In this document: in pieces, positions 28,957 through 29,864 of the stretch
How positions within the stretch are numbered: position 1 is the stretch's first letter
How the letters are laid out: each line of letters begins with the position of its first letter
IMG/VR virus record: IMGVR_UViG_2908567220_000001
Coordinates: 1-37,322 of that record
Strand: one strand, 5' to 3'
DNA: 37,322 nucleotides
From: a virus
Lineage: Duplodnaviria > Heunggongvirae > Uroviricota > Caudoviricetes
Position numbers and translations under genes: made by a program
Notes under the pieces: model-generated
The model's input: the letters and a program-made list of their open reading frames with translations, nothing else
Database searches by the model: none
Told to the model about the DNA's origin: nothing

Positions 28957-28985
28957 CGAATGAACTCCAAAAACACACAGAAATA

Positions 28986-29028
28986 TTAGGCGACGCCTAA
29001 CGCAATTGTCAATAGGCTGTGCCTAATG
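28986..29028. promoter_or_regulatory. operator palindromes in the racR/ydaS divergent promoter region
   Basis: Perfect 15-bp palindrome TTAGGCGACGCCTAA (28986-29000) and TAGGC-TGT-GCCTA (29013-29025). Confidence 0.5.
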
Positions 29029-29079
29029 CGGTAAGGATAGGGATTGCCTAATGTAATGCGCATAGGAGAATATTAAGCA

Positions 29080-29556
29080 ATGCTTAGTGGTAAAGACTTA
29101 GGCCGAGCGATAGAGCAGGCCATTAACAAAAAAATCGCATCGGGATCCGTCAAATCAAAGGCGGAGGTCGCACGCCACTTCAAAGTCCAACCACCATCAA
29201 TTTATGACTGGATTAAGAAAGGCTCTATAAGTAAAGATAAACTTCCAGAATTATGGCGTTTCTTTTCTGATGTTGTTGGTCCAGAGCATTGGGGGCTTAA
29301 CGAATACCCCATACCAACCCCCACCAATTCAGATACAAAAAGTGAACTTTTAGATATAAACAACCTTTATCAAGCAGCCTCTGATGAAATAAGAGCGATT
29401 GTAGCTTTCCTGTTATCTGGAAATGCTACAGAACCAGATTGGGTTGACCACGATGTTCGCGCCTACATAGCAGCGATGGAAATGAAAGTGGGTAAGTATC
29501 TGAAAGCTCTAGAATCTGAACGGAAAAGCCAGAACATCACAAAAACTGGAACTTAA
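29080..29556 (+). CDS. racR: prophage repressor (RacR-like)
   Basis: 158-aa ORF with GGAGAA RBS; N-terminal HTH (KAEVARHFKVQPPSIYDWIKKG); divergent from the cro-like gene. Confidence 0.8.
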   Translation: MLSGKDLGRAIEQAINKKIASGSVKSKAEVARHFKVQPPSIYDWIKKGSISKDKLPELWRFFSDVVGPEHWGLNEYPIPTPTNSDTKSELLDINNLYQAASDEIRAIVAFLLSGNATEPDWVDHDVRAYIAAMEMKVGKYLKALESERKSQNITKTGT

Positions 29557-29650
29557 ACTTATATGGTCTGACGGAAAACTCCTGGATTCCGTTATTTAAC
29601 CCCCCCATCACTTTCTGCTGTCGCCATCACCTATTAGGTTACGCTCAAAA

Positions 29651-29674
29651 CATTAGGCATAGCCTATTGACAAT
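29651..29674. promoter_or_regulatory. second operator-like site downstream of racR
   Basis: CATTAGGCATAGCCTATTGACAAT is the inverted copy (1 mismatch) of 29005-29028; contains palindrome TAGGC-ATA-GCCTA. Confidence 0.4.
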
Positions 29675-29864
29675 CAATTAGGCATTACCTATAGTTCCAG
29701 CATACCACCCACCCCGCCCCACAGAACGCCGGGCAATACTTCGAGTTACCAGGCAGTGGTAAGGGGTTAAGTAGCCAGCCCGAGGCGTATGAACATGACG
29801 GCGGGATTCAAATTTTGCAGTGCAGCAGTTAGTTCCGCCACCCGGCGTTAAGGGGAGAGATAAG

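Follow-up and report, generated by a model that had tools for sequence, protein, structure and literature searches.

A predicted left operator and promoter downstream of racR, mirroring the ydaS side of the Rac prophage immunity region

The repressor gene racR of the Rac prophage is bracketed by two near-identical, inverted, operator-like elements, one between racR and ydaS and one beyond the end of racR, which raises the question of what the downstream element does. We addressed this question in a stretch of 37,322 nucleotides of Caudoviricetes DNA (IMG/VR record IMGVR_UViG_2908567220_000001, positions 1 to 37,322), hereafter the window. The upstream half of the arrangement, including the motif, is already published. 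Wisniewska et al. (2022; PMC9638921) obtained a DNase I footprint of RacR on the racR-ydaS intergenic region, gave the RacR half-site as ATTAGGC and the operator as (T/A)TAGGC-n3-GCCTA(T/A), mapped PydaS with a -35 of TTGACA and a -10 of TAATAT, described three promoters for racR, one of them leaderless, and drew the cI/Cro analogy for racR and ydaS. Four inverted repeats upstream of racR were subsequently described by Gucwa et al. (2023; PMC11014345). The published operators O1-O3 (PMC9638921) concern the same protein, motif and DNA as positions 28987-29086 here. The operators of both papers lie in the upstream region only, whereas the sites at 29654-29691 lie downstream, and this downstream half is an expected and apparently undescribed counterpart. 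The Rac papers searched contain no description of the downstream cassette, although an earlier account of a Rac PL may exist; a literature text search for ydaG and ydaF start sites returned nothing relevant, and a search of the sbcA literature returned no mapped operator mutations.

The window is nearly identical to the Rac prophage of K-12. Four differences from K-12 MG1655 occur within positions 28940-29880 (about 940 bp), all of them outside the operators and promoter hexamers, and experiments performed in K-12 therefore apply directly to this DNA (K-12 coordinates are obtained as 1,449,321 minus the window coordinate, on the K-12 minus strand). Two of the four differences, at 29030 and 29037, sit in the linker between OR2 and OR3, and one of these alters the first base of the published PracR2 -10 (AGTAAG in K-12, GGTAAG here). 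The features discussed below are collected in Table 1.

Table 1. Features of the racR region, in window coordinates.
Feature	Position	Strand	Description
ydaS	28660..28956	-	Cro-like gene read from the PR analogue; same position as K-12 b1357
PydaS (PR analogue)	28983..29012	-	-35 TTGACA at 29012..29007, 18-nt spacer, -10 TAATAT at 28988..28983
OR1 TAGGCGACGCCTA	28987..28999		Fills the PydaS spacer and overlaps the -10; 23.7 bits
OR2 TAGGCTGTGCCTA	29013..29025		Adjoins the PydaS -35; core of the left 24-nt arm (29005-29028); 23.8 bits
OR3 TAGGGATTGCCTA	29038..29050		19.2 bits
OR4 TAAGCAATGCTTA	29074..29086		Centred on the racR ATG; 18.7 bits; the published 'operator 3' (PMC9638921)
racR (repressor)	29080..29556	+	158 aa; N-terminal helix-turn-helix domain; non-S24 C-terminal domain
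C-rich, G-poor tract	29590..29635	+	Between the racR stop and OL; C/G = 4.5
OL2 TAGGCATAGCCTA	29654..29666		Adjoins the PL -35; core of the right 24-nt arm (29651-29674); perfect core
PL analogue (predicted)	29667..29695	+	-35 TTGACA at 29667-29672, 17-nt spacer, -10 TATAGT at 29690-29695
OL1 TAGGCATTACCTA	29679..29691		Fills the PL spacer and overlaps the -10; 18.9 bits; one mismatch
Early-left leader	29703..29860	+	About 155 nt, single-copy; first 40 nt C-rich (C/G = 3), rest G-rich
ydaG	29865-29999	+	First gene of the early-left operon leading to kilR and recET
ydaF	30010-30165	+	Next after ydaG in the early-left operon

The first-pass annotation, made from the letters of the window, had described TTAGGCGACGCCTAA and TAGGC-TGT-GCCTA in the racR/ydaS intergenic region, and both are present, at 28986-29000 and 29013-29025. 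It had further described a 24-nt element recurring as an inverted copy ahead of the plus-strand early genes. This is indeed the case, with ATTGTCAATAGGCTGTGCCTAATG at 29005-29028 matching the reverse complement of 29651-29674 at 23 of 24 positions, and with ydaG, ydaF, kilR and recET lying beyond the right arm. The point it had passed over is that, on both sides, the 24-nt element joins an operator to the -35 hexamer (TTGACA) of a promoter that fires outward. Chance does not explain the repeat, because shuffled sequences fail to reproduce it: the 24-mer at no more than three mismatches found 0 matches in 100 dinucleotide-preserving shuffles of the window, and the longest inverted repeat with at most one mismatch in 28900-29800 is this one, at 24 nt, compared to a mean of 12.4 and a maximum of 19 among 300 shuffles.

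The likely half-site pair had been proposed to be TAGGC-N3-GCCTA, with a motif search across the prophage as a check, and this pair matches the operator motif published for RacR (PMC9638921). The search recovered five sites at one mismatch or fewer across the 37 kb, all of them flanking racR. The count of TAGGCNNNGCCTA at the same stringency was five against 0.58 expected, a count reached in 0 of 100 shuffles, with matches starting at 28987, 29013 and 29038 in the left cluster and at 29654 and 29679 in the right cluster. A weight matrix trained on 83 operator sites, from this window and 18 related loci, contributed one extra site, TAAGCAATGCTTA at 29074-29086 over the racR ATG, and found no position of 8 bits or more in the 37 kb besides the six sites flanking racR. 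The lambda-like layout that had been proposed for the locus holds up, with its site counts corrected: OR has four sites, not two, and OL has two scoring sites, not three.

On the upstream side, YdaS matches the Pfam families YdaS_toxin (2.6e-31) and P22_Cro (3.4e-9). PydaS scores 10/12 in a promoter consensus scan, and its transcription start and -10 were confirmed by experiment in K-12 (PMC9638921), where OR1 falls within the region first protected by RacR in the footprint. OR3 has a counterpart in other genera, a conserved site 41 nt upstream of the start codon (TAGGAATTGCCTA), and its right half (TTGCCT) may, by our reading of the sequence, double as the -35 of the leaderless racR promoter PracR3. 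OR4 likewise has a counterpart in nearly all homologous loci, where a conserved site begins 6 nt before the start codon. The number of upstream sites varies among loci: E. coli Rac has four, starting 93, 67, 42 and 6 nt before the ATG, and the homologous loci of other genera (L010-L034) have three, at 66, 41 and 6 nt, such that Rac appears to carry one extra operator unit of about 26 bp. RacR itself had no match to Peptidase_S24 in a Pfam domain search, and a PDB sequence search with RacR found nothing. RacR acts like cI at the DNA, yet it is no member of the S24 (cI/LexA-type self-cleaving) family.

The downstream side presents the same parts in mirror image. OL2 has the top weight-matrix score in the window (26.6 bits) and is conserved in 13 other loci. 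The predicted PL scores 11/12 in the consensus scan, would start transcription near 29699-29703, and has a TTGACA and a -10 that are conserved across genera. Read in the direction of transcription, the left cassette is CATTAGGCACAGCCTA|TTGACA|ATTGCGT|TAGGCGTCGCCTAATAT and the right cassette is CATTAGGCATAGCCTA|TTGACA|ATCAAT|TAGGCATTACCTATAGT, with centre-to-centre distances of 26 bp between OR1 and OR2 and 25 bp between OL1 and OL2. Both outer promoters point away from racR, and racR is co-directional with the right-hand one. One half-site of OL1 carries a mismatch, which is found in the O157:H7 version as well, and occupancy of OL1 may therefore need cooperativity. A candidate third OL site, TAGGTTACGCTCA at 29635, was rejected: it stays under 8 bits, and conservation does not extend to its right half.

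The downstream element is very probably the left operator and promoter (OL/PL) of the Rac immunity region, mirroring OR/PydaS. For the upstream half, published work established both RacR binding and the promoter (PMC9638921); for the downstream half, the support comes from a promoter interleaved with two operators, the conservation of the whole cassette, its replacement along with the repressor in heteroimmune prophages, and published transcriptomes. The sequence architecture and its significance are observed in the window, and its conservation and co-variation with repressor type are observed among the loci compared below. In the mechanism we propose, each side would carry a cassette made of a 13-bp-core operator (O2), an adjoining TTGACA, 6-7 nt, and a second operator (O1) filling the spacer into the -10. 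Dimers of RacR bound to these two operators, whose centres are 25-26 bp apart, would cover both hexamers and exclude RNA polymerase, so that occupancy of the left cassette would keep ydaS-ydaT silent and occupancy of the right cassette would keep the ydaG-ydaF-kilR-ydaE-racC-recET operon silent. When RacR falls, both promoters would fire outward. At OL in particular, we infer that RacR dimers on OL2 and OL1, probably binding cooperatively, would shut PL as at PydaS, that YdaS probably binds there as well, and that transcription would start near 29702.

The genes placed under this promoter would be those of the K-12 annotation, ydaG, ydaF, kilR, ydaE and racC, with which the window is collinear; the ydaG and ydaF products have a UBA-like domain and a DUF1391 domain (ydaF), respectively. 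Their behaviour when RacR is lowered has been described. [quoted passage not shown] Since racR transcripts fall meanwhile, the early-left induction is not read-through from the racR promoters, and a RacR-repressed promoter located beyond racR can explain it, as the genes rise while racR falls. A small RNA gene, KilS, is now present in the K-12 RefSeq record between sieB and kilR (906-1003 of locus L001, corresponding to roughly 30820-30920 of the window), and it lies within the operon that the predicted PL would drive. Conter et al. reportedly placed kil under the control of the Rac repressor in 1996.

An alignment of RacR homologues yielded 29 loci with a RacR-type DNA-binding domain, one genome per species. 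The sites starting 66, 41 and 6 nt before the start codon are present in nearly all 29, and a downstream operator pair with 24-25 bp spacing is present in 14 of them, four being E. coli-type Rac. We compared 11 distinct cassettes along with the Rac-like locus of O157:H7 (L002), and they follow the pattern TAGGC-N3-GCCTA, TTGAC(A/T), N6, TAGGC-N3-GCCTA and then a -10-like TA, the sole hexamer exception being TTGTCA in Sphaerotilus. The half-sites and hexamers are kept, but neither the N3 spacers nor the 6-nt linker nor the flanks are. The downstream pair is found 62 bp to 1.9 kb past the repressor stop in Mixta, Morganella, Proteus, Erwinia, Achromobacter, Burkholderia, Sphaerotilus, Comamonas and Rhodoferax, a range that extends from Enterobacterales to Burkholderiales. 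In three loci with a distant pair, one to three co-directional ORFs lie between the repressor and the pair (L021, 2990-4781; L026, 3112-3486; L033, 3163-3540), and this slot is comparable to that of rexAB in lambda or paaA2-parE2 in CP-933P.

Six loci from Betaproteobacteria (L016, L018, L025, L026, L029 and L034) encode a repressor in which the RacR-type N-terminal DNA-binding domain is joined to Peptidase_S24. All retain TAGGC-N3-GCCTA operators, and L016, L018, L026 and L029 retain the downstream promoter cassette as well. Because several homologues carry Peptidase_S24, genuine cI-type repressors use the RacR-type domain together with its operator layout, and the enterobacterial RacR looks like a cI-type repressor with a swapped C-terminal domain.

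Prophages that have exchanged their immunity cassette provide a further view of the downstream element. In the Rac-like prophages of E. coli W, strain 98200 and ETEC4085, ydaS and the repressor are replaced along with both operator sets, and in W and 98200 the repressor is flanked on either side by a different, GTAC-based repeat. Homology to Rac ends at 28643, at the ydaT/ydaS junction, and resumes at 29703, 8 nt past the PL -10. Five further phages with other repressors each have their own promoter-like TTGAC...TA..T directly before the same conserved leader. Because different promoters each abut the same leader, the conservation boundary marks the predicted +1, and because homology resumes at that predicted +1, the promoter at 29667-29695 is independently supported.

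Another way to account for the downstream sites is that their role is mainly architectural: they would be a second anchor for the RacR octamer in an OR-OL loop of about 0.64 kb that tightens PydaS repression and tunes racR autoregulation, or they would act as a roadblock to read-through from racR, with local promoter control being secondary or absent. RacR was found to be an octamer by size-exclusion chromatography (PMC11014345), like lambda CI and PaaR2 (PMC8630535), the distance from OR2 to OL2 in Rac is 641 bp or 61.05 helical turns, and the racR transcript must stop before kilR (PMC4150792), all of which would suit such a role. However, the sites enclose a near-consensus promoter that is conserved alongside them in every locus, the genes downstream are strongly induced when RacR drops (PMC6765115), and the phase of the spacing is not conserved: across 13 loci, OR-OL helical phasing gave R = 0.41 with p about 0.11, which is not significant. 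The sequence thus lends no support to looping, as the OR-OL phase is not conserved, and we consider a mainly architectural role improbable. Architecture and promoter control are nevertheless compatible, and we infer that the published RacR octamer could loop OR to OL in addition to repressing at PL.

The downstream copy could also be an inert relic, such as a piece of OR duplicated by recombination, given that Rac is a defective prophage with many parts decaying and that a recent duplication would account for the 96% identity of the two arms. This reading is very unlikely to be correct, as the same cassette is found 3' of homologous repressors in distant genera with half-sites kept and spacers and flanks divergent, the 87%-identical O157:H7 version retains both sites and both hexamers despite changed neighbouring bases, and an identical region is present in the genome record of phage vB_EcoS-683R6. 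It is also very unlikely that these palindromes act as hairpins ending the racR transcript. A terminator scan does flag palindromes at 29654-29666 and 28985-29001, but both lie on the minus strand while racR is on the plus strand, and about as many would arise by chance (2 found, 1.7 expected). The stems are 5-7 bp, the hairpin on the racR strand is followed by UUGACAAUC with no U-run, the half-site sequence and not mere pairing is conserved across loci, and the published terminator here is Rho-dependent (PMC4150792). An intrinsic terminator was rejected on account of the opposite strand, the chance frequency and the missing U-run. The Rho-dependent termination of the racR transcript, which guards against kil expression, is located inside racR (PMC4150792); even so, the C-rich tract at 29590-29635 would fit this termination, as a candidate Rho-loading region that could stop read-through from racR.

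With the downstream element read as OL/PL, the Rac immunity region can be compared with known systems. As in lambda, the repressor gene lies between two outward-firing early promoters, each of which overlaps tandem palindromic operators about 24-26 bp apart. The resemblance extends further: racR is co-directional with PL, a Cro-like gene is transcribed divergently from PR, the repressor mRNA is leaderless and the repressor octameric, a terminator separates the repressor operon from PL, and PL is followed by early recombination and kil genes. Unlike the lambda repressor, RacR is without an S24 self-cleavage domain; the Rac operator has the 5-N3-5 core TAGGC-N3-GCCTA; there are two scoring sites in OL, where lambda has three, and four in OR; and racR alone separates the two clusters, which are only 0.64 kb apart. 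We recognised no N gene or nut site downstream of the Rac PL.

A related prophage is CP-933P of E. coli O157:H7 (PMC8630535), a cryptic lambdoid prophage with a ydaS-ydaT PR operon, in which PL933P has been tested and has hexamers identical to those of its PR (PMC8630535); this identity is the same phenomenon as the 24-nt inverted repeat in Rac. CP-933P differs in its repressor (PaaR2), in its operators (GTTTAGTAA-type repeats) and in having the toxin-antitoxin pair paaA2-parE2 between the repressor and PL. The dicA/dicC region of Qin (PMC10448788) is similar in having a short, non-SOS repressor with operator sets at dicCp (PR) and dicBp (PL), and the first gene after dicBp, ydfA, encodes a DUF1391 protein like ydaF. 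Qin-type phages have the Rac leader after their own PL. In contrast to Rac, the repressor family and operators are others, and the K-12 Qin is without the leader core of about 125 nt.

Comparative evidence supports well the view of the Rac OL/PL as a true analogue of OL/PL. RacR is essential in K-12 and actively studied, yet outside the racR-ydaS region its regulon has been called uncharacterised. The predicted OL/PL would explain why a drop in RacR induces the entire left arm of Rac, and where expression of recET and of the toxic kilR could start. It would also offer an explanation for the RacR octamer, namely two tetramers bridging OR and OL as in lambda, which fits the octamer as well as the published four dimers on four upstream repeats. 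The cross-genus cassette would provide a clean operator model for a repressor family that includes SOS-cleavable members, and such a model could be useful for prophage annotation and for the design of orthogonal switches. The main value lies in directly testable predictions on the RacR regulon and the role of the octamer, and the textbook picture is unchanged.

The leader that follows PL deserves separate mention. It is nearly invariant among heteroimmune prophages of the Rac and Qin types, each with its own promoter, and is shared by the phages Evi, Tritos, 640R1, 606R7 and pPE4; the K-12 Qin and ETEC4085 are without the core of about 125 nt and retain the last 25 nt or so. An Rfam scan of 28400-30400 at E values up to 1 gave no match, leader included. 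A comparison of the leader with the HK022 immunity region, including PL and nun, revealed no similarity, and there is no second copy of the leader in the window or in phage Evi. A nut- or put-like antitermination site was accordingly rejected, there being no Rfam family match, no HK022 similarity and no second copy. A long-range pairing of AACGCCGGG with CCCGGCGTT was rejected as well, as it is lost in the O157:H7 variant, and RNAalifold found little covariation in the leader. We tentatively suggest that the leader could be an undescribed cis-acting regulator of a toxic early-left operon (kil, recET, dicB) fed by the PL cassette, possible mechanisms being a Rho-dependent attenuator on the C-rich 5' end or a structure masking the ydaG ribosome-binding site. 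If so, Rac would silence its early-left operon in two layers, with RacR at OL, possibly looped to OR through the octamer, and with the leader.

Two minor observations concern the edges of the region. Within the leader, an ORF of 19 codons (MTAGFKFCSAAVSSATRR) at 29795-29854 lies behind a GAGG, and becomes an ORF of 20 codons (MNM...) when read from an upstream in-frame ATG at 29789. In related phages the inner ATG is present, the frames and ends differ, and some annotations extend the ydfA-like gene to it; the ORF at 29795-29854 is probably not a real gene. On the other side, a 1310-bp element of the IS3 family occupies 27162-28471, with ends TGAACCGCCCCGG (IS629/IS1203-like) and a 3-bp target duplication, GAT. 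It is inserted in ydaT, which is intact in K-12, after about codon 55. The YdaT toxin and CII analogue is thus disrupted in this strain, and this disruption may make racR dispensable here.
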